64,000 nucleotides of DNA, from positions 27,638 through 91,637 of the forward strand of contig CAKNJR010000005.1 in the NCBI GenBank assembly GCA_930986425.1. The letters run 5' to 3'. The position numbers and the translations under genes were made by a program. The notes beneath the pieces were generated by a model. That model had not been told where the DNA came from. It did no database searches and saw nothing but the letters and a program-made list of their open reading frames with translations. The first letter of the stretch is position 1; the number at the start of each line of letters is the position of its first letter. This stretch comes from an uncultured Clostridium sp. (lineage in GTDB: Bacteria; Bacillota; Clostridia; TANB77; CAG-508). Positions 24,400-45,522 of the stretch are shown here, one piece after another.

Positions 24400-24400
24400 A

Positions 24401-28897: not shown

Positions 28898-28967
28898 TCC
28901 AACGACTTTCCTTTCTTCTATTTTAATTTCTCTTATTTTACTGTTTGAAATTTTATATTATTATTTT

Positions 28968-29537
28968 TTACTGATTTACAGCAAATGATAATTTAAAATC
29001 ATTTACCTCATTTTCTATTATTACAATTCTTTGCTCTGGAACTTCTGTTTCAGTTGTGTCTGTTAATGGATTCCTTATTTTTACAGTTAATACAAAAATT
29101 GTTCCTTCCCTATCTATATTTGTATATTCTACTACCATGTTACTTGGATAGTTATTTTGAGCATATGTTATAAAATCTTCTAAAGATGGAAAGTATGATT
29201 GCTTAAATCCATCATATAATAGATTATATGCTTCTTCATAATCTTTACTTTCTATAAATGATATATACTGTCCAAAATATGTTTGCATACGTAATTGCTC
29301 GCCAAGTGATGCTATTTTGTTTTCTCTATTTTCTTCGTCTGTTTCTGTTGAGGTTGTTTCATAATTAGTGTTAATTTGTTGATTTGTACTAGTAGTTGTG
29401 TTTGTTGTATTCGTTGTATTTTCTGCTATAACTTGTTCCGGAGAATTATGGTTTATAAAAATAATTATGTTTAATGCAATGAAAAATAGTATTATTATAA
29501 TTAAAATTAAATACGTAATTTTCTTTTTATCATTCAT
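28968..29537 (-). CDS. TM-anchored small protein, paralogue of 27950..28897 (possible NTF2-like/VirB8 analogue)
   Basis: 189 aa with an N-terminal TM and a T/N-rich linker. Contains FIESKDYEEAYNLLYDGFKQSYFPSLEDFITYA. The fold assignment is inference only. Confidence 0.45.
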   Translation of the reverse strand: MNDKKKITYLILIIIILFFIALNIIIFINHNSPEQVIAENTTNTTNTTTSTNQQINTNYETTSTETDEENRENKIASLGEQLRMQTYFGQYISFIESKDYEEAYNLLYDGFKQSYFPSLEDFITYAQNNYPSNMVVEYTNIDREGTIFVLTVKIRNPLTDTTETEVPEQRIVIIENEVNDFKLSFAVNQ

Positions 29538-29542
29538 ATTTT

Positions 29543-30193
29543 TTATTCCTCTTCTTTATCTGCCCCAAACTTTATTTGAGGTGTTGCACTATTGCTATTT
29601 GCTAAGTAAACTTTTAATTTTATATATTCGCCATTTGTGTAATTAAATGTTACATAAAATGTTGTATATCCATCTTCGTCCTCATTATATGAGTCTGTAT
29701 CTATGACATTTTTTGAATTTCTAACTCCGCTAATATGAGTCACTTTAAGTAGTTGAATAGAAATATTTAAAAAGTCTTCTGATGAATAAATATTCATGTC
29801 ATTTATTTCTTCAGTATTTAAATCATATAATTGTAATATTTTATTTATACTCATTCTATTTATTAGATTATAAATTTCATTTACATCTGTATTTACAAAA
29901 TTATAGAATTCTTCTAACAATCGATTTAAATTTTCTTCATTTGAATATCTCTCTATTATGTAACTTATATTTCGCAGTGATATTATATTTCTTCTTTGCT
30001 CATTGCTGGTTTCTGTACCTATGCTGTTGTCATTTATATTTACATTTTGCTCATTATTTTGATTAATAGTATTTTCCTCATTTACTATTGAATTTTGTAC
30101 TTCATTATTTGAATTCATAATATTATAATAAGCAAGTTGTCCAACTAATAATATAATCAAAATAATAATTATTACTATTAAAAATTTTTTCAT
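29543..30193 (-). CDS. TM-anchored small protein (T4SS-like locus)
   Basis: 216 aa with an N-terminal TM (FLIVIIIILIILLVGQLAYY) and an N-rich linker. It sits 5 nt upstream of the next gene. Confidence 0.45.
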   Translation of the reverse strand: MKKFLIVIIIILIILLVGQLAYYNIMNSNNEVQNSIVNEENTINQNNEQNVNINDNSIGTETSNEQRRNIISLRNISYIIERYSNEENLNRLLEEFYNFVNTDVNEIYNLINRMSINKILQLYDLNTEEINDMNIYSSEDFLNISIQLLKVTHISGVRNSKNVIDTDSYNEDEDGYTTFYVTFNYTNGEYIKLKVYLANSNSATPQIKFGADKEEE

Positions 30194-30241: not shown

Positions 30242-32992
30242 TTATTCTTCTTCCTCTACGCCTTCTGTTAAGGATTCAAAAATACCTAATCTTGTACCTT
30301 TGTAAGTTGGATACATGTATGTTTCAATGTCATCTACAATTGTTTTATCCATATTATATAGTAATATATGCATTTCTTGGTCTGTTGCTGTGCCTATTGA
30401 TGAACCCGCTGTAACTTCTTGTCCTGCTGAAACAGATGGCGTTATTCCACTTATTGTCATTTCCATATCTAGTACAATATCTCTTTCTACATCAAAGTAA
30501 TCTGTTCCGAATTTATCTTGAAGTGCTTGTGCATTTCCATCTGATATTGTTTTGAATTTTAGTCTAACCGTATCTCCATCTACGCTTACGACAGTAGCAT
30601 CTCCTGGAGCTATAATATTATCTCCACTTTGCACTGCTGTACCATTTTCTAAAAATATTCCATATTGATTTTGTTTTTTTACTATACCTTGCGTAGCAAT
30701 TTCAGCTTCGTCATCACTTTCTTCAGTATCACTACCTACTCTTTCTACTGGCCATAGAAGTACTTGTGTAAGTGGCTTCATAAAGTCCTCTTTAGTAAAA
30801 TAGCCTAATTGTATTACTAATTCCTTTAACATTCTATATACTGTTTCTGCTTCAATAGAATGAACATTCTCTAATATTCCGAAAGCTGTGATTGCGTCTT
30901 GTTTATTTTCATTTCCATTTTCATCTGTTGTTACAAATGTTACTGATTGTTTTGCAATAGCCCAATCACTGTTGTCAGTTGATACAACTGGATAATTATC
31001 TCCCTGATAGTAATATGTATCTTTTCCTTCATCAATTGCTTTGGCATTTACAATTCTTTGTGCTGTTGCTCTTGTTCCATCAAATCTATAATATTGTCCT
31101 GGGAAATTATATGTAGCTCCTCCATAAGTACTTCCGCTTCCACCCTTGAATAATGCAATTATTGCCGGGTTTGGTCCAGTGGCTTCTGGCTCTGCTAATT
31201 GATAAAATACTCCATCTGCATTTGTATATGTTGTATCAAGTATTATGCTTCCTCCATTTAAGTTTTTCTCAGATAGTGGGTCATCTTCATCTTCTGTTGC
31301 ATATTGAACTTTTTTCTTTGCTCTTCCTGCTGTTCCATAATCATAATATATGTCATTAAAGTACCAATGCCTTATTACACTTTCTATTCTTGGTAAATAG
31401 GTCTTTCCTGGTTCTGTTCCATCTTTAATTAGATTCTTTAATTCTTCTAATTGCTGTACTGTTATTCCAGAAAGAGAAGTTCCATCTAATGCTGTTTGAG
31501 CTGCTGCTACTTCATCTGCGTTGTCCATATCAACTGCTGCTAAATATTTGTCAATAACACTATCTACTGGATCTCCTTTAACTTGTCCTGTTTGTTGTCC
31601 GCTTATAGGATCCCATACAGGTGTATAAGTTTCCATTTTAACATTCACTGTACTATATTTTTGTCCTAATATTTTCTCTTCAACTTCGCTCAAATTAAAT
31701 CCTAATCTTAATTCATCTGCTCCATAATTTTCTATTGTTTTATCTGCTATTATTGACCCCTCTGTTGCATTTATTCGATCTACTGGTGTAGCATCATTTA
31801 TTGAATTAACAATCTTTTCAAATGCTTCTTCTAGTTTTCCAGCAGTTTCAAATCTGCTTATTTGTTCATCCGTCATATTACACATAACTCTTAAGTATAT
31901 ATTTTGTATATCTGTTTGAGATATTTCTGTTCCATCACTTTTTCTATAAATTACTTTAAATGTTGATGTAACTTCCTGTAATTGTATATTAACTTTAGTA
32001 TTAAATGCTGGGCTCGTTGCTAAATCATATGTTAAATCTGGCATCATTGTTGCTAAATGTAATGATAAAAATAGTTCTAGTGGTTTACCATATATTGATG
32101 TCCAGTCTGATAAATCAAAGTACAATACATCACCATATCCAAATGATAAATCATTCGAAAGACCAAACCTTTTTGTTTGTATTCTTAATAATTTTCTTTC
32201 TCTATCTACTTTAACTTGTGGTCCATATCCTCCTAGGTCAACCAAATTAACAATATCTATCATTCCTTCCGAATACATTCTTGCAGTTGTTTCATCAATA
32301 TTATTGGGGTCTCCAAAAATTGCTTCCACTCCATTCTTTATGTCATTAGTTAAACTATTCCATGCTCCTAATAAATTCCAAGAAGATAGTACATACATTG
32401 CTTCACTTTGCGCAATATATGCTTGTAAATAATTTCTTGATGAATCTATTTTGGATATTCCTATTATTTTATTATTTGTAACTCCATCTATATCTTCTGC
32501 AACAGCTGTATCATTATCATACTCATATTCTGCATCAGCAAATCCATAGCCGACTACATCATATCCCATATCCTCTATTTTTTGTGCTAATGCTATTTGG
32601 TCTTCTTCTGTTACACTTGTTGTTACTCCTTCTCCATTAAAGAAATTAACAATTGAACCCCAAAGTGTAGTTCCAAATTCTTTTATGCTTTCTATAAAAG
32701 TTCCAGGTAGTGACATAAAAAATCCTATAAAACCAATTACTAGAACTATAATTAGTATTACTAAAGCTACTGTTCCTAATGCTGGCAATTTTGTGATAAT
32801 TGCTTTAATCGCTTTAATTTTACTATTTCCTGCCGCTTTTTTTACATTACTTGCTGCATTTTTCACATTGTTTGCTGCATTTTTAGCTTGTTGTGCTCTT
32901 TGAGCTACACCTCCACCATTTTTATTTTGCTTATCTTCTGCATTTTGCTCTCCCATAGTAGTTACATTACTATTGTTATCTTCTGGTTCCAT
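30242..32992 (-). CDS. Large bitopic protein with C-terminal LytM/M23-like (apparently degenerate) domain
   Basis: 916 aa. K/A/N-rich N-terminus, one TM (LPALGTVALVILIIVLVIGFIGFFMSL) and a roughly 750-aa ectodomain. The C-terminus IIAPGDATVVSVDGDTVRLKF...VSAGQEVTAGSSIGTATDQEMHILLY follows the M23 strand pattern. I find no HxxxD or HxH metal ligands. Confidence 0.5.
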   Translation of the reverse strand: MEPEDNNSNVTTMGEQNAEDKQNKNGGGVAQRAQQAKNAANNVKNAASNVKKAAGNSKIKAIKAIITKLPALGTVALVILIIVLVIGFIGFFMSLPGTFIESIKEFGTTLWGSIVNFFNGEGVTTSVTEEDQIALAQKIEDMGYDVVGYGFADAEYEYDNDTAVAEDIDGVTNNKIIGISKIDSSRNYLQAYIAQSEAMYVLSSWNLLGAWNSLTNDIKNGVEAIFGDPNNIDETTARMYSEGMIDIVNLVDLGGYGPQVKVDRERKLLRIQTKRFGLSNDLSFGYGDVLYFDLSDWTSIYGKPLELFLSLHLATMMPDLTYDLATSPAFNTKVNIQLQEVTSTFKVIYRKSDGTEISQTDIQNIYLRVMCNMTDEQISRFETAGKLEEAFEKIVNSINDATPVDRINATEGSIIADKTIENYGADELRLGFNLSEVEEKILGQKYSTVNVKMETYTPVWDPISGQQTGQVKGDPVDSVIDKYLAAVDMDNADEVAAAQTALDGTSLSGITVQQLEELKNLIKDGTEPGKTYLPRIESVIRHWYFNDIYYDYGTAGRAKKKVQYATEDEDDPLSEKNLNGGSIILDTTYTNADGVFYQLAEPEATGPNPAIIALFKGGSGSTYGGATYNFPGQYYRFDGTRATAQRIVNAKAIDEGKDTYYYQGDNYPVVSTDNSDWAIAKQSVTFVTTDENGNENKQDAITAFGILENVHSIEAETVYRMLKELVIQLGYFTKEDFMKPLTQVLLWPVERVGSDTEESDDEAEIATQGIVKKQNQYGIFLENGTAVQSGDNIIAPGDATVVSVDGDTVRLKFKTISDGNAQALQDKFGTDYFDVERDIVLDMEMTISGITPSVSAGQEVTAGSSIGTATDQEMHILLYNMDKTIVDDIETYMYPTYKGTRLGIFESLTEGVEEEE

Positions 32993-33069: not shown

Positions 33070-35667
33070 TTAATGTGTAAATCTATTATTGAATTTTCTT
33101 CTTATATTTCCTGTAAATCTTCTTACTGCGGATATTTCACTTATATTGCCTCTTTGTACTCCAGCTACATTTTGCTCTACTTGTGTTATTGCATCATCTG
33201 CTGAAAGTCCAGAGTCTATATATCTATCTTGCTCAGCACGTATTAAATTATAATAGTCTTCTTCATATGGTTGATATTGCTCTGAGCCATCTAATAATGC
33301 TTTTGTGTGGTCCCTTATCCATGCATCATCTCTTCCTTGATATGTTTGGCCCGCTATATCTTTATAGTCTTTAGCAAATTTTCTTAAATTTGAATTTTCT
33401 TCCATTCTTGATATAACACCATTTGAAATATTCATACCTGTATTATATCCTGATATAGCATTTTCCACTCTTCCTGTTGCTAAACCTGCCGCTCCAAGCA
33501 TAATCGCTAGTGGTAATTTTCCCGCTTGTTTAAATCCGAATTTGGCTACGCCACCAATTGTCCTAAGTATTGGATTACCTCCTCCGCTTCTATTACTTCC
33601 ACTATTTGCTCCGGTTGTATTTGCTGATGCTGTCGCTGTTTGTGTCGCAGGATTTGTCATTCCTCCAGCTCCTGTAGCCGCCCCGGCAGTATTGGCTGCT
33701 CCTCCTATTCCGCCTGTTCCTGCTGCTGCATTTGCTGCTGCGGCTATTCCATTTGCTGGTGCTCCACCTGGCGCTGTTGGATTTGTAGTAGCTGGTTTTT
33801 GATTTGTCTTTGGATTACCTCTACTTGCATATCCCTTAACCTTAGCTCCAGATGATGCTGCTTTGGATACAGCACCAATTGCTGATGTAACCAATGCTGC
33901 TTGTGCAACTGTTTTTGCTACACTCTTTCCTTGGAAGTGGAATATCTCTTTTATAATATCCTCTGCTTCAAACATGAAAAATACCATAATTATTGCTACA
34001 ACAACAGTAGATATGTCATCTGCACTCATCGAAGTTATTGCTGTTTGTACCAATGCTAGATATGTTACACATTGAAATGGCTGAAGTAATATATTATATA
34101 CAAAGTTCTTAAACCAAGTATTTAGTGCTTGTGATTTTCCATCTCCCATTCTATCTATTGAATAAGTTACAGTTATTAATGGCGATATCATAATCAAAAA
34201 TGCTATTGTAACCATACGTTTTACATATGTACAGAAAAATATAAATGTCATTACGGCTAACATTACATATATAACCATATTTGCTAGCTGTGATGTGAAA
34301 GATAATATATCTGAAAAAGACATAGCATTATCATATGCTTCTTCCATAACTGTTGCACCATTTGTTGAACCATTTCTTGCTATTTTTAATACCTCTACTA
34401 ATCCATCATTTATATTTATAATAAATATCATTATATAGTGTAAAACGAATAGTAAAACAATACTAACTACCCAGTCTGTTAACATTCTTTTATATCTTGC
34501 TTTTTCTTCTGCAACAGAAGATATAGCCATTCTTATTCCTATATAAAGTGCCATTATTGCTAATATAACTGCTGCTATATTTCTTATTGCTACATACCAA
34601 ATTGATACTTGCTCTCTTATTAGATTAACTGTATCTGCATTTACACCTGTGACTGTTTCGAAAAAATTAATTCCAAGTATTGGCACTTCGTTGAATAATA
34701 TTTGGTCTAATGATAAGCCTGACATTACACTATCAGAGCCATTAACTGCTAGACCAATAATAGACATCAAAACTCTTGCACCCATCATCGGTAATAATTT
34801 TACGAAATAGAAAAATATACCTACAATACCATTTAGAAATGATGCTAATGCTCCACCTACACCTGCTACAATTCCTGCTACTCCTCCGCCACTATCGTTT
34901 CCATTAAGTTCTGTGTTAATATCTGCAGATTCTACTATTCCGTCCTCTACTCCTTGCAATGATGGAAACTCATCTCCAATCACTGCTAAAGCTTCCCTTA
35001 AAGCTTCTTCGCATCTCTGAACCTCATCTGTTGTTGTACTTGCATTATATGCTTCAGCATAAGCTCTTCTTATTTTATCTCCATATTTTTCAACTGCTGA
35101 CCTTGCTGTCTGTTCAGCAGTCCCTGCTCCCATTCCTGCATTGCTCATAAGATAATTAGTAAATACATCTATTAGGTAATCATCTGTTAATTCTAATGGA
35201 CTATCAGTTTCTACAGGTTCATCTTCATCTGGTTCATCTTCAGCCGGAGGTTGTTCTTCGGTACCATTAACAACTTCTTCTACATTTGCTAGTCCTACCA
35301 TTGTGTCGATTCCAGATACGTATACCGTTGATAATCCTGGTACACTTTCTAATGCTTGTTTCAATGAATCTTCACATTTTTTTACTTCATCTGTTTCTGA
35401 GCTATTTGCATATAAATCGTTATATTCAGCTACAATCCAGTCTCCATATGTATAAACCATATTTTCTGCTACTGACTCTGCTGTATCACCTGGTAATAGG
35501 CTTCCTCCATTTCTCGCAAAATCCTCGCTGCTAATATAACTCTCAAATAATTGTTGTAGGAAATTCGTATCTACTGTTAAAGTATTAGCTGCCCTAACAA
35601 AATTTGTTATTATTATAAGTATAATAATTGGCATTATTATTTTTTTTAATAATTTTTTAGCCTTCAT
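33070..35667 (-). CDS. VirB6/TrbL-like polytopic membrane protein, paralogue 1 (duplicated N-terminal ectodomain, G/A/T/N-rich tail)
   Basis: 865 aa with a signal/anchor. Two roughly 90-aa repeats (..DEVKKCEDSLKQALESV.. and ..DEVQRCEEALREALAVI..). Core motifs VPILGINFFE, VSIWYVAIRNIAAV, LYIGIRMAISS, KARYKRML and GDGKSQALNTWFKNF with at least 6 TM helices. Low-complexity tail PGGAPANGIAAAANAAAGTGGIGGAANTAGAATGAGG. Confidence 0.65.
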   Translation of the reverse strand: MKAKKLLKKIIMPIIILIIITNFVRAANTLTVDTNFLQQLFESYISSEDFARNGGSLLPGDTAESVAENMVYTYGDWIVAEYNDLYANSSETDEVKKCEDSLKQALESVPGLSTVYVSGIDTMVGLANVEEVVNGTEEQPPAEDEPDEDEPVETDSPLELTDDYLIDVFTNYLMSNAGMGAGTAEQTARSAVEKYGDKIRRAYAEAYNASTTTDEVQRCEEALREALAVIGDEFPSLQGVEDGIVESADINTELNGNDSGGGVAGIVAGVGGALASFLNGIVGIFFYFVKLLPMMGARVLMSIIGLAVNGSDSVMSGLSLDQILFNEVPILGINFFETVTGVNADTVNLIREQVSIWYVAIRNIAAVILAIMALYIGIRMAISSVAEEKARYKRMLTDWVVSIVLLFVLHYIMIFIININDGLVEVLKIARNGSTNGATVMEEAYDNAMSFSDILSFTSQLANMVIYVMLAVMTFIFFCTYVKRMVTIAFLIMISPLITVTYSIDRMGDGKSQALNTWFKNFVYNILLQPFQCVTYLALVQTAITSMSADDISTVVVAIIMVFFMFEAEDIIKEIFHFQGKSVAKTVAQAALVTSAIGAVSKAASSGAKVKGYASRGNPKTNQKPATTNPTAPGGAPANGIAAAANAAAGTGGIGGAANTAGAATGAGGMTNPATQTATASANTTGANSGSNRSGGGNPILRTIGGVAKFGFKQAGKLPLAIMLGAAGLATGRVENAISGYNTGMNISNGVISRMEENSNLRKFAKDYKDIAGQTYQGRDDAWIRDHTKALLDGSEQYQPYEEDYYNLIRAEQDRYIDSGLSADDAITQVEQNVAGVQRGNISEISAVRRFTGNIRRKFNNRFTH

Positions 35668-35680
35668 GTTTCACCCCTTT

Positions 35681-38600
35681 TTATAGTCCTTCCATAAACT
35701 TATTTGCGCCTCTGTATTTAGTTTTTGCCTTACCTTCAAAATCTTTTATGTCTTTATCTAGCTTAAATAAGTCTTTTGTTAAGTCTTGATATCCTTTGTC
35801 TTCTATTACAGCTTCTGTTGCACTTTCTTGTATAATTTTTACTATATCTGATTTAGTATATGTTGTTGTGCTTTCATCTTTTGTATCATTTTCATTATTA
35901 GAATTATCTGAAGGAGAATCTGCATATCCAAATTTGGATTCGTTTCTTCTTGAATCGTTTTCTGATTTTGTTTTTTCTCCATCATATCCATATTTTGAGT
36001 CATTATTTGTATCTACTGTCTGAGCATCGATGCCTTCATTTCCTTCGCTTCTTTCTTCTGCCTCTTTCTTATTTCGTAAAAATACAACTTTTGTTCTTGC
36101 CTTTTCTGATAATATACTTCTTAAAGAATCATTTTTTGTAATTTTTACTCCAATTGCCTGAGATATTGCATCTATTATATCATTTATTGAATAATTATCA
36201 ATAGTTGTTATGTTATTTTCTTTTATATAGTCATCTATTAATTCTTCTAGTTTGCTCTCACTTACTTCTTCTAATACAATACTTGCATCTGCCTTAAATG
36301 AATTAAACTTGTTTTCATCAAGTTTTTTCATTGCTTCTGCCTTTTCCTCTATGCTTGTCTCTTTACTGTTAATCTTATCTAATAAATCTGCTGCACTGTA
36401 TTGTTTGTCTCTCTTCTTTGTGTATTTTTCTGCTTTATAATTCATATCTGATTGTTTTATTATAATTCCATCTTTTTGTGCTTTATAGTGTTTCTTTCCC
36501 CTTGTTTTCTTTAATGTATTTAAGCCAGTTGTAAACATTGTTAATCCAGCTACTGGGTTTACCACTGCCATAGGTGCTGCAAGTAATGTACTTATAGAAC
36601 CAGTTGCTGCTTTCTTAATGAAATCAACGTTCGACTTAAATCTTTTCTTTCTGTTTTTAGAAATACTATTTTTAATCTGTCTAGCCTTTACACCAACAAC
36701 TCCTTTTTCTCTAGAAAGTCTACGTAATTGTGCTTGTCTTTGAACAGCTGTTAATGCTTGATTTCTCCATGTCCTTGGAGAGTTACCCTGGTTATTACCA
36801 CCTTGATTATTTTGCATATTTCTTGCTACATTTTCTATACGCGTGTCAACCGCATTTAGTGCACTATTAACTCTACTACCAACATTTTCACTTGCATTTG
36901 GAAATGTTCTCCCCAAATATCTTGTAAATCTTCTTCCTGTTCTAACAGCTCCTGTACCAAGTCCTTTTGCAAATCCAAACGTTGTTTTCGCCATACTTCC
37001 TACGAACATGGCACCAGCAAAATTTTGCATAACTTCTTTACGGCTTTCTTTTCTAGCTGCTTCTTCTGCCAAATCTGATTTACTTTCAAAGTTGAATATA
37101 CTTCTAAATATATCATCTGCATCTAGCATAAAATTCATAAATACTAATGCAATTATATATCCCACAAGTGATGAAAAAGCAAAATTAATTGCTGCAGTCA
37201 TTAATACAGTATATACTATTGCATGAACAGTTTGAAGTAATACATTTAACGTGAAATCATATAACCAACTACTAAATGATGAACCTTTTTTACCTCTAGC
37301 GCTATCTATTGCATATTTTGCTCCTATAAATGGAGCAATTATTACAAGAATTAATATTGTGAAAGCTCTTTTGATGTAAACCCATAGGAATTTTACCCAT
37401 ATTACTACAAGTGCTATGTACATTATAGTTCCAGCCAAACCTACGCTTAAACGTAAATCATATGCTCTTGTTCTAATGGTTTCATAAATTGAATCTTCTA
37501 TCCACCCATTAGAAGTCATCATGTCTTGTGATGCCTTTTCTAGTAATGCCACTAAACTATTATTAGTATTTATTATTAATATCATTATAAAGTGTACAAC
37601 TAAAACAATTACTAGTGCTTGTACCCATCCAATCATCATAGTTTTGTATTTTGCTTTATCATTTGGTATTGTTGATAAAGCCATTCTTATTCCTATATAT
37701 ATAATTATTATGGCTAATGCAATTATTACTAAGTTTCTGAATGATGTATACCAAACTGATACAGTAGTTCTAATCACACCTACTGCACTTCCTTCAGAAA
37801 CAGGTTGTCCACCAGCAGTATCTGAAAAGAAATTTATATCTAAAATTGGAATTCTATTAAATATTATATCTTCTATTGTATATAAAGGTTCTTGATATTT
37901 ATCTTCGTCACTTCCTCCTGCTATTTCTATTCCTAAAAATAGTTTGCCAAAGAAGTTTGCAGTGTCATCAACAACTTGTCCACCATTGCCTACACTATCA
38001 TTAAAGTTATGGTTAGTATTGCTATAATCTTTTACTTCTCCTCCTTGGTTAGATACAGTATTTTTAGTTTGTTCAACAATACTACTATCTATTGGACCTT
38101 CTCCTTTTGCATCAGCTCCGTCTTCTGCTAAGAATATAGCCCCTGAATAACTGCTTAATACTGAGTTAGGATATGAATTATCCATTTCCGAGAAAAAAGT
38201 ACCACTTGCTTCAAAAGAAAATGAACCTTTATTTAAAAAGTCATAGCCCATTGAACCATCACCATTTGCTGGAGCCCATAGTGCTATTCCTGCCACCGAA
38301 TGACTTCCTGTTTGTGTGTACATTGAGGCAACTCTTCCGCCCATACTATGTCCGACAAGGCCTATTTTACTACTATCTATATCATATCTACTTGACATAT
38401 TTGAAATAGCTGAGTTCACATATTCATACATATTTGATAGTGTATATGCTGATTCTGCTGCTGTACTATCTCCACAACCAGGGAAGTCAATTGTTACAGC
38501 TGCTATTCCATGTTGAGCCAAAATGTTTCCTAATCTTATAAAATGGTCATCATCATTTCTTCTATTTCCAGTATATCCATGACACATAACTACTAATGGC

Positions 38601-38839
38601 ATTGCTTCTGTTGTTCCATTTGGTACCATTATAGTTGCATTTATTGGATTCCCTGGTGTTGATGATGATTGAAAAGTTGTATTATTTGTAGTTACTGCAT
38701 AAATTCTATTAGCATTACTTGGTGGTGTCGTTTCTACTGTATCATCAGTTGCTTTTACTGAAAACATCGAAAAAAGAATAGTAAAAGCAAATATGCATAT
38801 TAATACTGTGGTAATCTTGTTGTATAATTTCACTTTCAT
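35681..38839 (-). CDS. Alpha/beta-hydrolase fused to a VirB6/TrbL-like polytopic domain, paralogue 2
   Basis: 1052 aa. N-terminal signal/anchor, then a hydrolase fold (VVMCHGYTGN, nucleophile elbow LVGHSMGG, late NTNHNF His). Core motifs IPILDINFFS, VSVWYTSFRNLVI, IYIGIRMALST and KAKYKTMM with multiple TM helices. Long K/R/E/N-rich C-terminal tail. Confidence 0.7.
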   Translation of the reverse strand: MKVKLYNKITTVLICIFAFTILFSMFSVKATDDTVETTPPSNANRIYAVTTNNTTFQSSSTPGNPINATIMVPNGTTEAMPLVVMCHGYTGNRRNDDDHFIRLGNILAQHGIAAVTIDFPGCGDSTAAESAYTLSNMYEYVNSAISNMSSRYDIDSSKIGLVGHSMGGRVASMYTQTGSHSVAGIALWAPANGDGSMGYDFLNKGSFSFEASGTFFSEMDNSYPNSVLSSYSGAIFLAEDGADAKGEGPIDSSIVEQTKNTVSNQGGEVKDYSNTNHNFNDSVGNGGQVVDDTANFFGKLFLGIEIAGGSDEDKYQEPLYTIEDIIFNRIPILDINFFSDTAGGQPVSEGSAVGVIRTTVSVWYTSFRNLVIIALAIIIIYIGIRMALSTIPNDKAKYKTMMIGWVQALVIVLVVHFIMILIINTNNSLVALLEKASQDMMTSNGWIEDSIYETIRTRAYDLRLSVGLAGTIMYIALVVIWVKFLWVYIKRAFTILILVIIAPFIGAKYAIDSARGKKGSSFSSWLYDFTLNVLLQTVHAIVYTVLMTAAINFAFSSLVGYIIALVFMNFMLDADDIFRSIFNFESKSDLAEEAARKESRKEVMQNFAGAMFVGSMAKTTFGFAKGLGTGAVRTGRRFTRYLGRTFPNASENVGSRVNSALNAVDTRIENVARNMQNNQGGNNQGNSPRTWRNQALTAVQRQAQLRRLSREKGVVGVKARQIKNSISKNRKKRFKSNVDFIKKAATGSISTLLAAPMAVVNPVAGLTMFTTGLNTLKKTRGKKHYKAQKDGIIIKQSDMNYKAEKYTKKRDKQYSAADLLDKINSKETSIEEKAEAMKKLDENKFNSFKADASIVLEEVSESKLEELIDDYIKENNITTIDNYSINDIIDAISQAIGVKITKNDSLRSILSEKARTKVVFLRNKKEAEERSEGNEGIDAQTVDTNNDSKYGYDGEKTKSENDSRRNESKFGYADSPSDNSNNENDTKDESTTTYTKSDIVKIIQESATEAVIEDKGYQDLTKDLFKLDKDIKDFEGKAKTKYRGANKFMEGL

Positions 38840-38938
38840 TACTATTCTCCTTTCTGAATTTCATATTAATTACTATCTATTTTTATTCTAATATTTTGTA
38901 TTTGTACTGAAATTTTGTTTTTTCTTATTTAATCTTGA

Positions 38939-39886
38939 TTAATTCAGTCCATGTAAGAATGAGTTAATCATTAATTGGAAGAAATACACATATCCTAATA
39001 ATGGCGCTTTTATTAATGAAATTAATATACCCGCTAAGTAGTCCATAAATCCACTTATTCCATCAAATAGCCATTTAAAAATATCTACTTGTTCTTCATA
39101 TATAATTGTTGTTGGCATACCATCAAAAGTAAATTCGTCTGCAATTGCATCTAAGTCAACTTCTTCTGAGTCTAGTTCTACACCAGATGGGCTTGTTGCT
39201 CCATTTAAGCCTCCAACACCGCCTACTCCTGCTCCTTCTAAATATTCAAAAGAAGCATTTGCAGCGGTTTCTGCTGTTACTCTTCCGACCCATCCTTGGT
39301 ATCCACCATTGCTGTTACAATCACTTATTGCACTTCCATAATAAAGTCTTTTGGTATACATTCCTATTGACATACCATCTCCAACATATACAGCTACGTG
39401 GTGCCACATTACAATAATATCTCCTGGTTGCCATTCATCTGAAGAGCAATCTACTCTTTCAAATCCATTTTTTACATAAGGTGCATTATTAGGATTTGAT
39501 GTTCCCGAACTGGCATATGGGCATTTTACAAATTCTGTATATTCTTCTTCTCCTATTCCTAAGGCATGATGAATTACAAATGATACAAATGCTACACAGT
39601 GAAAACTATATATTGTTGTTGTATCTGAATCACTGACAGGAAGGTTATACCCTGCAGTTCCTCCATACCTTGCTTGTGAAGAGTGCTTGTTGGCAAAATC
39701 AATTGCCCATGCTGCTATGGTTTCTCCTGCTTCTTGTACAGTATGGCCTGTAGTTGGTCCTAATGAGGAAGAACCACCATCATTTATTTGCATTTGCGGA
39801 GCTCCTAATGAAATTGATAAGGAGAAATTCCAAAATACGTCTGCAATTAGTAGTATAACTATTATTTTAGTAAATATTTTTCTCAC
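38939..39886 (-). CDS. NlpC/P60-family cell-wall hydrolase with C-terminal hydrophobic segment
   Basis: 315 aa. GTG start overlaps the upstream stop by 1 nt, with GGAGGAG upstream. Signal peptide. Cys in YSFHCVAFVSFV and His in GDIIVMWHHVAVYVGDG, the NlpC/P60 Cys...His pattern. C-terminal FMDYLAGILISLIKAPLLGYVYFF. Confidence 0.65.
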   Translation of the reverse strand: MRKIFTKIIVILLIADVFWNFSLSISLGAPQMQINDGGSSSLGPTTGHTVQEAGETIAAWAIDFANKHSSQARYGGTAGYNLPVSDSDTTTIYSFHCVAFVSFVIHHALGIGEEEYTEFVKCPYASSGTSNPNNAPYVKNGFERVDCSSDEWQPGDIIVMWHHVAVYVGDGMSIGMYTKRLYYGSAISDCNSNGGYQGWVGRVTAETAANASFEYLEGAGVGGVGGLNGATSPSGVELDSEEVDLDAIADEFTFDGMPTTIIYEEQVDIFKWLFDGISGFMDYLAGILISLIKAPLLGYVYFFQLMINSFLHGLN

Positions 39887-41115
39887 TATTCTCCTCCATT
39901 TTCTTCTCCAGAATCTAAATAAATTTGATTTGAAATTCTGTCTCCTTCAGCCTTTAATACCAAGTTTGTTTCTAATCTTGTGTATATGTTAGCAGGTATA
40001 TTCTTGTTTTCTATTAAATCTTCCATTTTTATGTTTTCAGTAATCCATCCTTGGAAATTACTATATATTATTACTCCATTTTGTGATGGGTAGCCCATTC
40101 TTACACAAAAGCCTAATAAAGGATATTCTATATCTACATAATTATTATTATCAGTAAAACTGCTGTAATGTGGATATAGGTCTGTTAATTTATTTAAAAA
40201 TGTATTTATATCTCCTGTGTTGTTTAGCTCTGTAACTAGTTTTCCAAACTCTATACTGTCTTTTTCGTCATATTTGTCTGGAGGATATAAAGATATTTCA
40301 TCGTTTGAAAAGAATATATAGAAATACTCACATTTATAACCTATAATATCATTATTGGTATCTTCATATGTTGGTGTTCCGAGTATTTTTTCTACATCTT
40401 CTAAACTTGCATTAGTTGTTATTCCATTTACAATTTCATCTAAATAACTTTGTGTAAAAACAATATTGTATATTTCTGATCCAATTTTTCTAATATTATA
40501 CCCTTCTTGATATATCTCATAATCGTTTTCCATACTTGTCCTTACTCCAAGGTTTACGTTGTTATATATCCAGTTTGCATTTATAATATTTGCTAGTATT
40601 GGTGATGTTATAGTAAAAGCAGTTAATTGTTCATCTTTATAATTATCTATTTGATAATTTGCTTTTATATGTTCCCAGTACTTTCCGTCGTTGTTTATAG
40701 TGTAAAGAGATACTTCATCATTTTCATTATATTGTATTTTTACAAGGACATTTTTTTCTGTGTCAATCATTCTGAAATTGTGGCCTTTTCTAAAACCTGC
40801 TACATGGCTTATAACAACTTCATAAAGTGATTTATTCGTTATACCATCTTCATTTACTGTTGGCTTGCTAAAGCTTAAATAGATATCATCTTCAAATCCT
40901 TCTTCTGCTGATTTTTCTGTTCTAATATACTCATGTCCATCATATTCTATTATTTCTTTTACTGAAGAAAAGTCATTGACAGATGTTTTAGGCCTACTTT
41001 TGTCTAAGAAATATCCTATTAAACCAATAATTATTATAACTAATGCAATTCCTAGAAAAATCAATGTTTTTTTTCTTTTTTTCATTTTCTTATCCTCTTT
41101 ATTTAATACACGCAT
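39886..41115 (-). CDS. TM-anchored protein of unknown function (T4SS-like locus)
   Basis: 409 aa with an N-terminal TM (LIFLGIALVIIIIGLIGYFL). No recognisable motif. Confidence 0.5.
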   Translation of the reverse strand: MRVLNKEDKKMKKRKKTLIFLGIALVIIIIGLIGYFLDKSRPKTSVNDFSSVKEIIEYDGHEYIRTEKSAEEGFEDDIYLSFSKPTVNEDGITNKSLYEVVISHVAGFRKGHNFRMIDTEKNVLVKIQYNENDEVSLYTINNDGKYWEHIKANYQIDNYKDEQLTAFTITSPILANIINANWIYNNVNLGVRTSMENDYEIYQEGYNIRKIGSEIYNIVFTQSYLDEIVNGITTNASLEDVEKILGTPTYEDTNNDIIGYKCEYFYIFFSNDEISLYPPDKYDEKDSIEFGKLVTELNNTGDINTFLNKLTDLYPHYSSFTDNNNYVDIEYPLLGFCVRMGYPSQNGVIIYSNFQGWITENIKMEDLIENKNIPANIYTRLETNLVLKAEGDRISNQIYLDSGEENGGE

Positions 41116-41137
41116 TTATCAATTCTTTGTTGTACCA

Positions 41138-42331
41138 CTATTTATTTCCAGGGATTTTTACGCTCTTCAATCCTTTATCTGCTGTACCTCCGCTGATTTT
41201 TAATGCACTTCTTACAACTTTTTCTGCATTATCTAATGAAATTATAAATATAATTCCTATTATAGGTGCTGTTTTTGCGATTTCACCTGCTGAAAGCATA
41301 AACACTACATATAATATTAGATGCATTGGTTGTATGAATACTTGAATCATTATTTCTTTAAACCAATTATTAAACGCTTGTGGTTTTCCATCGCCTACGG
41401 CATCAATTGGGTATGATAAACAAATAAATGGTGCGATAACTGTCATTATAAAAATTTTTAACACCCTGAATAGGTATATAACAAAAAACTTTATTTCATA
41501 AAATACTAGTACGCAATTCATTGTTGTATATATTAATTTTTCCCATCCTTCGGCTCTTGATGTTTCTGCTGCTAGTCCTGAAAGCATTGCTGTTTCAACA
41601 TCATTCACATCCTGATTATTCTCAATTGCTCTATTTATGAAATCTACAACTATATCAGACAAGCTTATCATTATTGCTACTATATATTGAATAACAAATA
41701 ATAGTATTACTCCGACTAGCCAACTCATAAGCATTTTCTTGTATTTAGCTGAATCTTCTGCACTTGCTGAAATTGCCATTCTTATTCCAACATATACTAA
41801 TGTTATTGCACATCCAACTGCTGCTATATTTCTTGTTGCAACATACCAAACTGCTGCATTATCTTTTAAGGTATTAGAAATATCTGAATTTGGTCCTTCA
41901 GGAGTTTCAGCAAACATGTTAATATTAAATAGTGGATATTGATTTGTTAGCAATTTTCCTATTGTAAAAAATTCTGTTTGTTGAACGCCATCGGTGAAAT
42001 TAGCCGCTTGGTTTGTTGCAACAGCTTGGAGTACCAAATTTATTGTATTTGCTGCCATTGTACCTATGCTGGTTATTGCATTGGCAGTCGTTTCTTCTTC
42101 TGCTTCGCTTGTTCCAATATCGACATTCTCTGATTGTACAGAAGAATTTGAACCATCAGATGTTACAGTTGATTGTCCATCCATTAATTCATTAAATGAT
42201 TCTTCTGGGTTTGAAGATGAAGAACTGTCTGGTATATCAAAAGTATGGTCATTTAAGGCCGATACTTTAGGGGTAAGAAGAATCGCAATAGTAATTATCA
42301 TTACTAATATTGTTATTATTTTTTTTCTCAT
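41138..42331 (-). CDS. VirB6/TrbL-like polytopic membrane protein, paralogue 3 (minimal form)
   Basis: 397 aa with a signal peptide. Core motifs YPLFNINMFAE, AAVWYVATRNIAAV, VYVGIRMAISAS, SAKYKKML and GDGKPQAFNNWFKEI, with 5-6 TM helices. Confidence 0.65.
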   Translation of the reverse strand: MRKKIITILVMIITIAILLTPKVSALNDHTFDIPDSSSSSNPEESFNELMDGQSTVTSDGSNSSVQSENVDIGTSEAEEETTANAITSIGTMAANTINLVLQAVATNQAANFTDGVQQTEFFTIGKLLTNQYPLFNINMFAETPEGPNSDISNTLKDNAAVWYVATRNIAAVGCAITLVYVGIRMAISASAEDSAKYKKMLMSWLVGVILLFVIQYIVAIMISLSDIVVDFINRAIENNQDVNDVETAMLSGLAAETSRAEGWEKLIYTTMNCVLVFYEIKFFVIYLFRVLKIFIMTVIAPFICLSYPIDAVGDGKPQAFNNWFKEIMIQVFIQPMHLILYVVFMLSAGEIAKTAPIIGIIFIISLDNAEKVVRSALKISGGTADKGLKSVKIPGNK

Positions 42332-42345
42332 TAAAACACCCCATA

Positions 42346-44298
42346 TTATGCTTGCTTTTCTTTTAACTTGTTAACATTCGTTTCTATAAATTCAAATTCT
42401 TTCTTTGTTGGAATTATTTCCATAATTGCTGTTTGTTCTCCAACTTTGAATAATCCTTGTCCTCTACTGCAAGTAGTTAGGAAAGAAGCTTCTCCTTCAC
42501 TTAATTTGAAAACTTCTTTTATATATTGTATTTCAGATTTATCTTGTGCTAAGAATAACTTTGTATCTGAAGATGTTAAAACTGCTTGAACTTCTGATTT
42601 TTCATAGAAGTCTTGGAATCTCTGTGATACAACAGCTAGTGAAACATTTCTTTTTCTGGCACGTCTTGCCATTTTATTTAAGAAGTCTACAGCTTCTGGG
42701 TATGGTAAAAGCATCCAAGCCTCATCAACTAAAACACGCTTCTTTCCGGCCTTTGCTTTATCCTCACTATTTTTCTTAACATATTTTTCCCAAATCCAAG
42801 AAAGTAATATTTGCTGTGCTAATGGTCTTGCAAATCTTTCCTCCAAATTTGATATGTCTAGATTTATAAATGAAGTTCCTTCTAATAAATCAAATGTTGA
42901 TTGTCCATCAAAATATGCCATTTGTCCATTAAGCTCTCTTACGTATTGTTTCATAACTTTTACTAAGTAACTGTAATGAACTCTATAATCTGGGTTTGTA
43001 TTTTGATTAGCATTTGTAACTAATCTTCTATACCAAGAGCCTATTGTTGGCATTTTTTTCTTAGTTCTTCCTAGGTAATTATTTTCTATTATTCCATTAA
43101 TATTTTTTTCATACAAAGAATTTACATCATTTGTAATACCTAAGCTAGCATATTCTTCTGCTGCCGCTTCAGCAATTATTTGCTTTGTTACTTCGTTTAC
43201 ATCTTCTGTTCTTGTACTACCTCTAGCCATTGTTAGAAGAATCTGAGTAACGTCCTCTACTTTATTTTCTACATTTAAAACTACTTTTTCACGACCTGTA
43301 ATTTCATCTCTTGTAATTTCAGGTTCTATATCAAATGGATTAATAATTGTATTTGAACTTGGTGAAATTACTACATTTAATCCACCAAGAGCATCTGCAA
43401 CAACTCCATATTCGCCTTCAGCATCTAGTGCTAAGCTTTCAATTCCCATAAGAACTGCTGACCTTGCGATAAGAGTCTTTATTGTAACACCCTTACCAGC
43501 ACCAGATTTACCGAATACAACCATGTTGTAGTTACTTAGAGTTGGGCTAAAATTATCATATAATATTGGTAATCCTGTTTGTCTATTAAATCCAATTGGT
43601 ATACCTTTTTCATGTCCAACATCTGAGTTGATAAATGGGAATACTGTTGCCATTGATCTACGGTCAAAAGTATGTACCTTTTTGATTTTGTCTTCACATA
43701 GTGGTAAATTAGATTTAAACGCATCTTCTTGCATTGCCCATGCTGTTTTCATACCAGTTAATGTTTTGGCCATTTCTGATGATAACAATTCTGTTTGTTT
43801 ATCTAATTCTTCTACACTATAAGCAAAAAGTGTACAAATTATTGAAGATTCAAATAATTTGTCCAAACCACTAGCAATTGCATCTCTTAATTCTTCTGCC
43901 TCTGCTCTTTTTTGTGCTAATGAACTTTCTCTATTGATTTGTCCTCTCTCTTGAGCAACAATTCTTTCTGATTCAAGTTCATTGATTGTTCTATTTAATT
44001 CGTTTTGTGATTTTGACTCACTTATAGGAGTTATATATACAGATACATTAATATCTCCAAAAGTATACATACTTCTTAGTAACTCTGGGAATGTACACAT
44101 TCTAGGAAGTGTTGATACAAGCATTGTCCTTGCATATTTACTTGTACTAGATATTATCTCTAACTTGTTGGTGCTTGTTGCATCTATTCCTGATGGTGCA
44201 ATTAAGTCTTTTAAATCCTTTGCATTATCCACAAAGCTTCTTTCTTCCTTTTGCGTTTCTCCTATATTGCTACTTTGCTCATTATTTTTCTTTTTCAT
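42346..44298 (-). CDS. VirB4/TraE-type type IV secretion ATPase
   Basis: 650 aa. Walker A VVFGKSGAGKGVT, LDAEGEY, INPFDIEP, Walker B KRVLVDEAWML, VVSQRFQDF. The N-terminal domain follows the IAPSGID...KYARTMLVSTLPR pattern of Gram-positive VirB4 homologues. Confidence 0.85.
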   Translation of the reverse strand: MKKKNNEQSSNIGETQKEERSFVDNAKDLKDLIAPSGIDATSTNKLEIISSTSKYARTMLVSTLPRMCTFPELLRSMYTFGDINVSVYITPISESKSQNELNRTINELESERIVAQERGQINRESSLAQKRAEAEELRDAIASGLDKLFESSIICTLFAYSVEELDKQTELLSSEMAKTLTGMKTAWAMQEDAFKSNLPLCEDKIKKVHTFDRRSMATVFPFINSDVGHEKGIPIGFNRQTGLPILYDNFSPTLSNYNMVVFGKSGAGKGVTIKTLIARSAVLMGIESLALDAEGEYGVVADALGGLNVVISPSSNTIINPFDIEPEITRDEITGREKVVLNVENKVEDVTQILLTMARGSTRTEDVNEVTKQIIAEAAAEEYASLGITNDVNSLYEKNINGIIENNYLGRTKKKMPTIGSWYRRLVTNANQNTNPDYRVHYSYLVKVMKQYVRELNGQMAYFDGQSTFDLLEGTSFINLDISNLEERFARPLAQQILLSWIWEKYVKKNSEDKAKAGKKRVLVDEAWMLLPYPEAVDFLNKMARRARKRNVSLAVVSQRFQDFYEKSEVQAVLTSSDTKLFLAQDKSEIQYIKEVFKLSEGEASFLTTCSRGQGLFKVGEQTAIMEIIPTKKEFEFIETNVNKLKEKQA

Positions 44299-44331: not shown

Positions 44332-45522
44332 TTAGATGTTTTTTCTTATAATTCTTCTCTTAGGCTTGTCTTGAATAGCCTCTTGTATATCGGTATTTTT
44401 TACTTTTTCTTTAGCTGCTTTATATAAAGAATTACTCATTTCATCTTTATATTCGTCGACCATTTCTTCTGCTCTTTCTCTTATTTTGGCTTCTTGTCTT
44501 AGCTTTTCTCTTTGCTCTTTATCAGCATCAATTATACTTTTTGCTGCAAGTTTTGCTGCATTTTCTTCAACTTGTCTTTCTAATCTTTGCTTTTTAGTTT
44601 CTAATACGTCTTTTGCTGTTGAATATAATTTATCGTATTCTGAATTCAAAGCATTTCTAAGTGTATAAACTTCTGATTGGTCTCTATTGTATGCTACATA
44701 TAGTAATTCCATTAACTCTTCTGAATTTAATACTTTTCCTGTTACTTCTGCTGAAGCTAATGCTCTAATTAATGTTTGAGCTCTTGTATATAATTCTGAA
44801 AATGCTATATCATCAATTTCATCTTTTGAATATGTGCTTGTATCTCCAAATTCAGCTGTATAATATGAAATTATTATATATGTTTTTTGTTGTAATATGT
44901 TTTTGCTTTCGCTAAGTTTTTCTGTGTAATCTGTTATAGATTCTCCATACTCTAATATGTTTTGTTTTCTTTTTCTCTCGAACTCAAGTCTTGACACAGC
45001 TTCTGTATTTCCATTTCTCTTTGCATTTTCAATTTGTGCATTAAGTCTTGCTATTTGATTATCTACATCATGTATTCTTTCATGATAATTTTGTATCAAA
45101 TCTTCGAAATTAAGTTTTCTTGTTTGTACATATAATTGTATTGAAAAGCGTAATGTATTTAAAAATTCTATAAATCCTGATTCAACAGCATTTTTTTCAT
45201 CTTCTGAAAGTAAATCATAATTGATTCCTTTACATTCTATTACCATAACATATTGTTTTCTTCCTTTTCTAACAATCATGTTATCTAGGACTTCGTCAAA
45301 TTCCATGAACTTATAAATTGAATCTATTGCTTTTCCTGTTCTAGTTATAAGATTTGTTTTTTCAGCACTTTGATTTGGATTGTTTACTTTTATCTCGGTA
45401 TCATTGTTAGGTTCTCTTTTTCTTCTCATTTTATATATTAATAATGCTGCAATAAACCCAAGTATTAATATCAAGATTAATATTATTATTAAAATTAAAT
45501 TAAGTAATTGAACTGTATCCAT
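44332..45522 (-). CDS. TM-anchored coiled-coil protein, possibly related to the VirB4 N-terminal domain
   Basis: 396 aa with an N-terminal TM. The segment YVMVIECKGINYDLLSEDEKNAVESGFIEFLNTLRFSIQLYVQT resembles the N-domain pattern of VirB4-type proteins. No Walker motifs. Its start abuts the stop of 45523..45975. Confidence 0.45.
   Translation of the reverse strand: MDTVQLLNLILIIILILILILGFIAALLIYKMRRKREPNNDTEIKVNNPNQSAEKTNLITRTGKAIDSIYKFMEFDEVLDNMIVRKGRKQYVMVIECKGINYDLLSEDEKNAVESGFIEFLNTLRFSIQLYVQTRKLNFEDLIQNYHERIHDVDNQIARLNAQIENAKRNGNTEAVSRLEFERKRKQNILEYGESITDYTEKLSESKNILQQKTYIIISYYTAEFGDTSTYSKDEIDDIAFSELYTRAQTLIRALASAEVTGKVLNSEELMELLYVAYNRDQSEVYTLRNALNSEYDKLYSTAKDVLETKKQRLERQVEENAAKLAAKSIIDADKEQREKLRQEAKIRERAEEMVDEYKDEMSNSLYKAAKEKVKNTDIQEAIQDKPKRRIIRKNI

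Follow-up and report, generated by a model that had tools for sequence, protein, structure and literature searches.

What do three related membrane proteins do when they are encoded together in one type IV secretion system (T4SS) gene cluster? This question was raised by a stretch of 64,000 nucleotides from an uncultured Clostridium sp. (Clostridia; TANB77; CAG-508), namely, positions 27,638 to 91,637 of contig CAKNJR010000005.1 in GenBank assembly GCA_930986425.1; we refer to the whole stretch as the window. A 20-kb, minus-strand T4SS cluster (27950-47786) in the window contains the three genes, which we call paralogs A, B, and C. The analysis presented here suggested that A, B, and C are probably VirB6-position subunits of a chromosomal T4SS/pilus system in uncultured gut Clostridia, a monoderm system related to the mating-pair formation class FATA (MPF_FATA).

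Three paralogs share one polytopic core

The three genes and the layout of their products (lengths in amino acids [aa]) are as follows.

33070..35667, minus strand: paralog A, 865 aa; signal peptide, two helical-bundle repeats, core at about aa 315-627, folded C-terminal domain
35681..38839, minus strand: paralog B, 1052 aa; signal peptide, alpha/beta-hydrolase, core at about aa 320-655, basic tail of about 400 aa
41138..42331, minus strand: paralog C, 397 aa; signal peptide, short ectodomain, six-helix core, hardly any tail

The original prediction, which was made from the sequence of the window, had described these three open reading frames (ORFs) with the coordinates and lengths that we found, and all three are on the minus strand. 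It had also proposed four ordered motifs, and the translations of all three paralogs contained them: PILGINFF, PILDINFF, or PLFNINMF as motif 1; SIWYVAIRNI, SVWYTSFRNL, or AVWYVATRNI as motif 2; YIGIRMAIS, YIGIRMALS, or YVGIRMAIS as motif 3; and ARYKRMLTDW, AKYKTMMIGW, or AKYKKMLMSW as motif 4. The additional motif GDGK(S/P)QA(L/F)NxWFK, predicted for two of the three proteins, was present in A and C only.

The predicted paralogy was borne out by pairwise BLASTP comparisons, in which a conserved core of about 290 aa showed 30-36% identity. The A and B cores were 35% identical over 269 aa (E = 6e-48), the A and C cores were 36% identical over 248 aa (E = 4e-45), and the B and C cores were 31% identical over 240 aa (E = 1e-36). 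When the database size was set to 2e12, the E-values for the core pairs were still 1e-23 to 1e-45. A search of the window with a core profile (hmmsearch) identified exactly three family members. As predicted, the core was polytopic, with six hydrophobic segments in each protein, and the AlphaFold models of C and A had six long core helices with a predicted local distance difference test score (pLDDT) above 90. The AlphaFold2 (AF2) model of C had a pLDDT of 81.7 overall and above 90 in the core, and the model of A had a pLDDT of 76.7 overall. A, B, and C are true paralogs with one polytopic core.

A pilin-like hairpin at the start of the core

The first two helices of the core form a hairpin, which was located at the following positions.

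41657..41869, minus strand: pilin-like hairpin of C, about aa 155-225; includes the WY..RN, Y(V/I)GIRMA, and AKYKKM motifs
37562..37774, minus strand: pilin-like hairpin of B, about aa 356-426; placed by aligning B with C
34408..34620, minus strand: pilin-like hairpin of A, about aa 350-420

A match of the first hairpin to the T4SS_pilin family was the sole Pfam signal on the core. The C hairpin scored just below the cutoff of 26.6 bits (25.5 bits, E = 1.4e-5), the A hairpin scored 21.8 bits against the same cutoff (E = 2e-4, aa 352-408), and the hairpin of a Clostridium botulinum relative, which is described below, scored 23 bits. We then compared a pilin family alignment built from 276 pilin genes of related loci with a core family alignment of 146 sequences trimmed to the core. 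The two families matched with 95.6% probability (hhalign; E = 1.3e-8) over 70 columns, which corresponded to the first two helices and the basic loop, and the consensus GIKY-M-ASPeeKAdIKK of the pilins was aligned with GIRMAISTvAEDKAKYKk of the core. Similar results were obtained with C-type cores (96.1%, E = 3.5e-9), B-type cores (96.0%, E = 4.2e-9), and A-type cores (94.6%, E = 7.2e-8). Probabilities of 1% or less were obtained for every control, namely, the reversed core, eight column-shuffled versions of it, the co-encoded VirB3-like family, the PrgH family, Orf15, and TcpH. When PrgF (one query sequence only) was compared with the PrgH family, there was no signal.

The results of the profile comparison indicated that the first core hairpin is homologous to the co-encoded VirB2 pilins. 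It is the profile comparison that this homology rests on; the curated Pfam score (PF18895, PF04956) was not reached. Because the match covered WY..RN, YxGIRMA, and AKYKxM, these motifs are the pilin-like part of the core. The paralogs hold a pilin module, yet they are 397 to 1052 aa long, with four further helices and extra domains, and are not pilins. By analogy with VirB2, the basic loop would be cytoplasmic and both hairpin ends would point outward, an orientation that agreed with the signal peptides and the extracytoplasmic N-terminal modules.

Position and fold of the core

Placement in a T4SS locus beside VirB4, VirB3, and VirB2 genes was found in the window, in 62 syntenic loci, and in a plasmid relative. 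When the model of C was compared with 350,542 Protein Data Bank (PDB) chains using Foldseek, the best match was chain 7o3v_J, the TrwI/VirB6 protein of R388 (probability 0.97; E-values in the 0.1-0.3 range), and TrwI chains made up five of the top six matches. The model of A, which is independent of that of C, had TrwI/VirB6 as all of its top five matches (probability 0.89-1.0, TM-score by target 0.39-0.48). The TrwI superpositions had root mean square deviations (rmsd) of 6.6-8.6 Å. Based on position and fold, it is plausible that the core is VirB6-like.

Only one named family, NCBIfam NF045848 (MMCAP2_0566 family conjugal transfer protein), had a statistically significant sequence match to the core. 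C scored 37.1 bits (E = 2.2e-9) and A scored 19.2 bits (E = 6e-4), both far below the curated cutoff of 90 bits; the match spanned model positions 47-306 of 322, and B had no match to this model. The scores indicate that A and C are distant relatives of the NF045848 family and not members of it. Going by gene numbering, this family is most likely CDS16 of the Mycoplasma integrative and conjugative elements (ICEs). Judging from the family names, its gene is presumably beside that of the pilin-like Mbov_0395/MMCAP2_0565 family and near that of the Mbov_0397 VirB4 family. CDS16 of the Mycoplasma ICEs has been called the likely VirB6-like component (PMC12857230).

A tblastn search of 72,556 plasmids with the C core produced six weak matches only, all in C. 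botulinum. One of these plasmids, pFWSKR40E1, carries a single-copy, 864-aa family member directly after VirB4 (64 bits, E = 8e-21). The T4SS of this plasmid (locus L083, record 9176-19856) is compact and draws on the same set of families; it encodes a pilin, a 105-aa protein, a 334-aa protein, VirB4, the 864-aa protein, and a C39/3D hydrolase, with a type IV coupling protein (T4CP) nearby. The plasmid was typed as non-mobilizable, and most of its T4SS genes were annotated as hypothetical.

The triplet is ancient

The core family consisted of 4303 clusters at 50% identity with E-values of 1e-3 or lower, and 2668 with E-values of 1e-30 or lower. Its members were 370 to 1258 aa long, with the core at variable offsets; no curated model of the family was found, and its proteins were unnamed in public sources. 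A scan of GTDB species representatives yielded 79 loci, all in assemblies of uncultured gut Clostridia, including Clostridium sp. CAG:571, CAG:793, Ca. Scatovivens, and one closed 1.8-Mb chromosome. The shared gene order was a pilin array, the VirB3-like gene, the TrsD-like gene, VirB4, a small core protein, the 409-aa protein, a large core protein, a mid-size core protein, and the 916-aa protein.

To place the paralogs relative to each other, we used the 62 loci that had exactly three full cores. In a neighbor-joining tree, the resulting 186 cores fell into three clades that matched gene position, with 62 of 62 cores of each type in the expected clade. Paralogs from the same genome were barely closer to each other than to the paralogs of other genomes. 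Therefore, the triplication predates the radiation of these genomes, and gene conversion has not occurred. The triplet is ancient and vertically inherited, and it consists of position-specific orthologous groups with the following median sizes in the 62 loci.

C-type: length 394 aa, N-terminal module 114.5 aa, tail 9 aa
B-type: length 1108 aa, N-terminal module 266.5 aa, tail 475 aa
A-type: length 772 aa, N-terminal module 105 aa, tail 302 aa

The related loci most often had three pilin genes and had as many as seven. One subclade (L060, L067, L069-L071, L073, L075-L077, and L079) had 6-7 tandem pilin genes, a duplicated 409-aa gene, and B-type paralogs of 1250-1780 aa; thus, pilin number and platform size seem to expand together. 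A literature search for T4SSs in the TANB77 lineage found nothing relevant.

Ectodomains, tails, and topology

Each of the three paralogs begins with a typical signal peptide. The domains outside the core that could be delimited are as follows.

38210..38692, minus strand: alpha/beta-hydrolase (carboxylesterase-type) ectodomain of B; Abhydrolase_1, E = 2.7e-15; contains GHSMGG
34945..35568, minus strand: ectodomain of A; a helical bundle that occurs twice, at aa 34-134 and 162-241; AF2 pLDDT 85-93
33148..33468, minus strand: folded helical C-terminal domain of A, aa 734-840; pLDDT 94-97; alignable across 58 A-type tails

The original description of C as a minimal paralog, and of A and B as carrying differing ectodomains and tails, agreed with these results. 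The N-terminal modules were unrelated, as had been proposed: Pfam identified the alpha/beta-hydrolase in B, and the AlphaFold model of A showed two helical bundles. The tails had been described as low complexity, a description that is incomplete: in A, a confidently folded helical domain follows the disordered linker. The PDB sequences nearest to the B ectodomain were S33, feruloyl, and cinnamoyl esterases and PETase/cutinases, with E-values of about 1e-16. In A, both bundles end in TDEV(K/Q)(K/R)CE(D/E)(S/A)L(K/R)(Q/E)AL, as read from the translation, and a long hydrophobic Gly-rich helix lies between the bundles and the core. The ectodomain of C is short and partly disordered, with one helix. 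The A tail starts with a disordered linker of about 100 aa, which is followed by a weakly conserved Gly-rich hydrophobic helix pair and the folded helical domain. The tails of A and B were both alignable across orthologs, and no profile similarity between A-type and B-type tails was detected (0.5%).

Among B-type N-terminal modules, Pfam detected NlpC/P60 in 11 of 56, as well as one M23 and one CHAP domain. A phmmer search with the P60 protein of the window was more sensitive than Pfam for these modules and found a P60 module fused to the B-type paralog in 17 of 62 loci and encoded by a separate gene in 10 of 62. The B-type ectodomains are mostly wall-active enzymes. In the window and its three closest relatives, B has the alpha/beta-hydrolase in place of a wall hydrolase, and in the same four genomes P60 is a separate upstream gene. 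The separate P60 gene of the window (38939-39886) ends in a hydrophobic helix (…FKWLFDGISGFMDYLAGILISLIKAPLLGY…) that, by eye, resembled the pre-core segment of P60-fused B-type relatives (the loci compared were L008, L016, L018, L021-L025, L055, and L074). This resemblance suggests a gene fission or fusion at P60/B, with the esterase domain swapped in within the lineage of the window.

Over the 186 cores, the loop between helices 1 and 2 was positively charged, the loop between helices 2 and 3 was negatively charged, and the loop between helices 3 and 4 and the segment after the core were positively charged. This charge pattern favors cytoplasmic tails for A and B, with an N-out/C-in topology such as the one reported for VirB6 of Agrobacterium tumefaciens. 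A simple topology with six transmembrane helices was rejected, as the segment after the core, which is basic throughout, would then lie on the outer side. The two candidate arrangements are an N-out/C-in topology with five membrane crossings and one that resembles R388.

No coupling protein or relaxase was detected in the loci

We searched the 79 loci, including 10 kb on either side, for T4CPs of three types (PcfC, TcpA, TcpB, and Orf21) and relaxases (PcfG, MobT, and TcpM) with phmmer, and none were found. As a control, a PrgJ query detected VirB4 in 35 loci; the window's own Mob_Pre protein, when used as a query, matched itself only. Pfam domains of T4CPs or relaxases were absent from the cluster, and in the 64-kb window the only one was the Mob_Pre domain of a separate island. 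Because the locus lacks a coupling protein and a relaxase, it is more likely that the machine makes a pilus and/or exports proteins than that it conjugates DNA.

The gene cluster and its surroundings

The cluster starts with three pilin genes, followed by VirB3/PrgI-like, TrsD-like, and VirB4 genes, C, the gene for a 409-aa protein, and an NlpC/P60 gene; B, A, the gene for a 916-aa protein, and genes for three small anchored proteins complete it. The genes other than A, B, and C are as follows.

47319..47786, plus strand: VirB2-like pilin gene 1; Pfam T4SS_pilin 32.2 bits (cutoff 26.6)
46443..46799, minus strand: VirB2-like pilin gene 2; TrbC/VirB2 32.8 bits, T4SS_pilin 29.7 bits
45991..46368, minus strand: VirB2-like pilin gene 3; T4SS_pilin 31.9 bits, TrbC 27.3 bits
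45523..45975, minus strand: VirB3/PrgI-like small membrane protein; Pfam PrgI E = 5e-4, below cutoff; position kept in 60 of 62 loci
44332..45522, minus strand: putative TrsD-like protein, 396 aa, N-terminally anchored and coiled-coil-rich; directly upstream of VirB4; in 60 of 62 loci
42346..44298, minus strand: VirB4 ATPase; NCBIfam CD1110-family VirB4 E = 1.6e-66; Pfam TraG P-loop and AAA_10
39886..41115, minus strand: 409-aa bitopic protein; encoded between C and B in every case; conserved in 61 of 62 loci, duplicated in some
38939..39886, minus strand: NlpC/P60-type cell-wall hydrolase; Pfam NLPC_P60 E = 4.7e-4
30242..32992, minus strand: 916-aa protein encoded downstream of A; conserved in 42 or more of 62 loci (sampling limited by flank length)
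27950..30193, minus strand: three small N-terminally anchored proteins of 216, 189, and 315 aa at the cluster end; homologs at the same end of many loci

All three pilin genes scored above the Pfam cutoffs. The sole match of the 396-aa protein was to the N-terminal region of a VirB4 model from Mycoplasma (NCBIfam VirB4_plasma, positions 80-221, E = 9.2e-5), and the protein is probably a TrsD-like component. TrsD has been described, and noted to be abundant, in Patescibacteria T4SS loci (PMC12102498). Scans of Pfam, NCBIfam, and PHROGs found no family match for the 409-aa protein, and the 916-aa protein had no match in these databases or among PDB sequences. By eye, the C-terminus of the 916-aa protein (…GQEVTAGSSIGTAT…MHILLY…) looked like a degenerate LytM/M23-like domain, as in PrgK-type VirB1 proteins. 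The 216-, 189-, and 315-aa proteins had no family match, and by eye they resembled NTF2-like/VirB8-type ectodomains.

The cluster is flanked by housekeeping genes, which encode M16 peptidases at one end and a DD-carboxypeptidase at the opposite end; relatives of the M16 peptidases were upstream in 26 of 62 loci. The window as a whole is a low-GC (~30%) chromosome segment of an anaerobic Gram-positive bacterium and carries NrdD/NrdG, FtsH, penicillin-binding protein, KsgA, and sortase genes. Between genes for surface proteins and the T4SS cluster is a plus-strand island (18000-24700) with opposite GC skew and lower GC content, which looks like a small integrated mobilizable element and contains the following genes.

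18858-20777, plus strand: large serine recombinase
21051-22445, plus strand: Mob_Pre relaxase, the sole relaxase of the window
22899-24257, plus strand: transglutaminase-like protein

The surface proteins (1577-17852) are three giant proteins (1760, 2244, and 1269 aa) in which SpaA/prealbumin-like and DUF11 domains occur several times, and the sortase gene is further along the window (55631-56356). A 385-aa ORF at 59843-61000 had a partial Flagellin_N match only (E = 9.5e-9, residues 115-180), and no other flagellar genes were noted among the scanned ORFs of the window.

Proposed mechanism and alternative explanations

We infer that A, B, and C have a VirB6 function, form oligomers, template the pilus, and have a non-conjugative role. 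In this proposal, the signal peptide would export each paralog and therefore place its N-terminal module outside the cell, and the protein would be anchored by the VirB2-homologous hairpin followed by four more long hydrophobic helices, which may adopt a VirB6-like fold. Together with the VirB3-like protein, the TrsD-like protein, and VirB4, the three paralogs would form the membrane platform that polymerizes the pilin array, and their built-in pilin hairpins could form the layer on which the first pilins dock or are templated. The templating step would fit the established model in which a VirB6 pentamer serves as a platform that recruits VirB2 via membrane helices and the pilus grows on top (PMC12624023, bioRxiv 10.64898/2025.12.18.695078). 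The paralogs would be non-redundant and specialized: C may be the bare platform, B may supply the assembly site with an enzyme that cleaves the wall or esters, and A may bring the helical ectodomain and the folded C-terminal domain. The tails of A and B may stand in for missing cytoplasmic adaptors.

Several results weigh against this proposal. A Pfam TrbL/VirB6 (PF04610) match was not found at an E-value of 0.1 or lower for A, B, C, or the C. botulinum relative; in the control, PrgH of pCF10 passed the cutoff (29.2 bits versus 25.9) and Orf15 of Tn916 was sub-threshold. When the core family was compared with single PrgH, TcpH, and Orf15 sequences, hhalign gave probabilities of 1% or less, and the comparison with a 44-sequence PrgH family profile gave 0.1%. 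A sequence-profile search of the PDB with the three-core alignment had no matches at an E-value of 10 or lower. The Foldseek E-values of 0.1-0.3 and TM-scores below 0.5 are not significant alone, and all-helical membrane folds can match loosely. Charge bias suggests that the tails are cytoplasmic, but they would be outside if the chain crossed the membrane an even number of times downstream of the hairpin. Finally, genes for a T4CP or a relaxase may be present at some other site in the genome. The original prediction had called the core VirB6/TrbL-like and had set beforehand a significant match to VirB6, TrbL, or TcpH as its test. The locus position and the top fold match were in line with that description, and a significant match was absent at the sequence and profile level.

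Scans of A, B, and C with Pfam, NCBIfam, and PHROGs also found no family above its cutoff for the core. The absence of a curated family and of a PDB sequence match would be expected if the core were a generic polytopic membrane domain, for example of a transporter, that is unrelated to T4SSs and is located in the cluster by coincidence. We consider this highly improbable, because the gene order with VirB4, VirB3, and pilins was invariant in 62 loci, an independent plasmid T4SS had the same arrangement, the hairpin was homologous to pilins, and the top structural matches were VirB6. The possibility that the locus derives from a conjugative element by decay or domestication deserves more weight, although we regard it as unlikely. 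A, B, and C would then be ordinary extended-VirB6 mating-channel subunits of the ConG/Orf15/TcpH class that serve DNA transfer, with the T4CP and relaxase encoded elsewhere. The closest relatives of the window's VirB4 are in the CD1110 conjugative family, the plasmid family member coexists with a T4CP, T4CPs are sometimes encoded far from virB4 (PMC12102498), and a length of 700-900 aa is usual for extended VirB6 proteins of MPF_FA systems (PMC12857230). However, T4CPs and relaxases were absent from the 79 loci and their 10-kb flanks, and the flanks contain housekeeping genes (26 of 62 loci have M16 peptidases, and the window has the DD-carboxypeptidase). In addition, each paralog type formed one clade, the triplication is older than the genomes sampled, with synteny maintained from then on, and the family was nearly absent from plasmids (6 weak matches in 72,556).

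A third alternative is that the paralogs are incorporated into the pilus, with the hairpin inserted among the VirB2 subunits, probably in a pentamer that forms a tip or cap and takes the role of VirB5 in diderm systems. In that case, the distal end would display the ectodomains, which could cut through peptidoglycan or engage a target cell. The homology of the hairpin to pilins fits this idea, as does the finding that the ectodomains are wall hydrolases or an esterase, and scans of the locus with Pfam and NCBIfam recognized no VirB5-like gene. The model of A also had weak Foldseek matches (probability 0.25-0.44) to the shorter R388 stalk chains 7o3v_H, 8rtd_H, and 8rtd_I; these covered about 157 columns with an rmsd of 5.6-5.9 Å, and the subunit may be partial TrwI or TrwJ/VirB5. 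In contrast, the best fold matches spanned the whole core and were to VirB6, not VirB5. Four further strongly hydrophobic helices and long basic tails are hard to fit in an extracellular fiber, C is almost without an ectodomain, and the plasmid relative is a single-copy protein at the VirB6 position. Taken together, these points make incorporation into the pilus rather improbable.

Implications

If A, B, and C are VirB6-position subunits, they might also be VirB2-VirB6 chimeras, in which a pilin hairpin is joined to a helical body of the VirB6 type. Tentatively, an oligomer of such chimeras would provide a ready-made first pilus layer for polymerization of the pilin array, and the three paralogs would form a hetero-oligomeric or layered base or tip that carries wall-cutting enzymes. 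The T4SS itself would be non-conjugative and passed on vertically in a clade of gut Clostridia with small genomes. If this possibility is correct, these Clostridia would be a second monoderm lineage, besides Patescibacteria, that uses a piliated T4SS for cell-cell interaction and not for plasmid transfer, and a common origin would be indicated for VirB2 and the membrane anchor of VirB6. VirB6 is the least understood core subunit of T4SSs, and the way in which it nucleates the VirB2 pilus is so far described only by a model. A large, uncurated family with a pilin-homologous hairpin in a VirB6-position protein offers a concrete hypothesis for pilus templating, and a fixed triplication with enzyme ectodomains on a channel protein suggests how monoderms may couple wall breaching to channel assembly. 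The new elements here are the pilin module in the core, a triplication that is both ancient and fixed, the fusions to enzymes, and the conservation in gut Clostridia of a piliated T4SS without a T4CP. Because hallmarks of the Patescibacteria type are kept beside housekeeping genes in at least 62 species-level genomes, such systems may be more widespread, and piliated monoderm T4SSs may matter for human and animal gut ecology.

Comparison with known systems

Like R388 TrwI and A. tumefaciens VirB6, the paralogs are polytopic, all-helical proteins encoded beside VirB4, VirB3, and VirB2. They differ from VirB6/TrbL proteins in the pilin-homologous hairpin at the start of the core, the three fixed paralogs, the signal peptide, and the large ectodomains. 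ConG of ICEBs1 belongs to the same class as PrgH, Orf15, and TcpH. The locus position next to VirB4 and a wall hydrolase is shared with PrgH (pCF10), Orf15 (Tn916), and TcpH (pCW3), and Orf15 and TcpH are likewise extended (725-832 aa) with hydrophilic C-terminal regions (PMC12857230). Unlike the window, the PrgH/Orf15/TcpH systems have a single copy together with a T4CP and a relaxase; the original statement that Gram-positive systems have one VirB6-like protein each held for pCF10, pCW3, Tn916, and the C. botulinum plasmid. The Mycoplasma ICEs with the NF045848 family also differ, as they are mobile, carry a T4CP and a single copy of the gene, and are without a wall hydrolase.

The original prediction had pointed to the VirB6 arrays of the Rickettsiales rvh system. 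Tandem, ancient, non-identical paralogs in a vertically inherited chromosomal T4SS are common to both, as are the large hydrophilic extensions (median of 1108 aa for B-type and 772 aa for A-type paralogs), and Ehrlichia has four VirB6 paralogs (Bao et al. 2009, cited in PMC12857230). However, rvh is a diderm MPF_T system with VirD4, whereas the system described here is monoderm and has N-terminal enzymes behind a signal peptide. We regard the resemblance as an analogy of architecture only.

The T4SS of Patescibacteria, which was called unique among monoderms as a piliated system in a 2025 review (PMC12857230), differs in that the host here belongs to a Clostridia lineage and that three VirB6-like paralogs have not been reported there. 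Its locus has no recognizable relaxase or coupling protein (PMC10633639, PMC12102498). In Southlakia epibionticum (SEML1_0006-0019), as in the window, the system is monoderm, chromosomal, and related to MPF_FATA, with a divergent array of VirB2-like pilins and with TrsD-like, PrgI/VirB3, VirB4, and VirB6 components.

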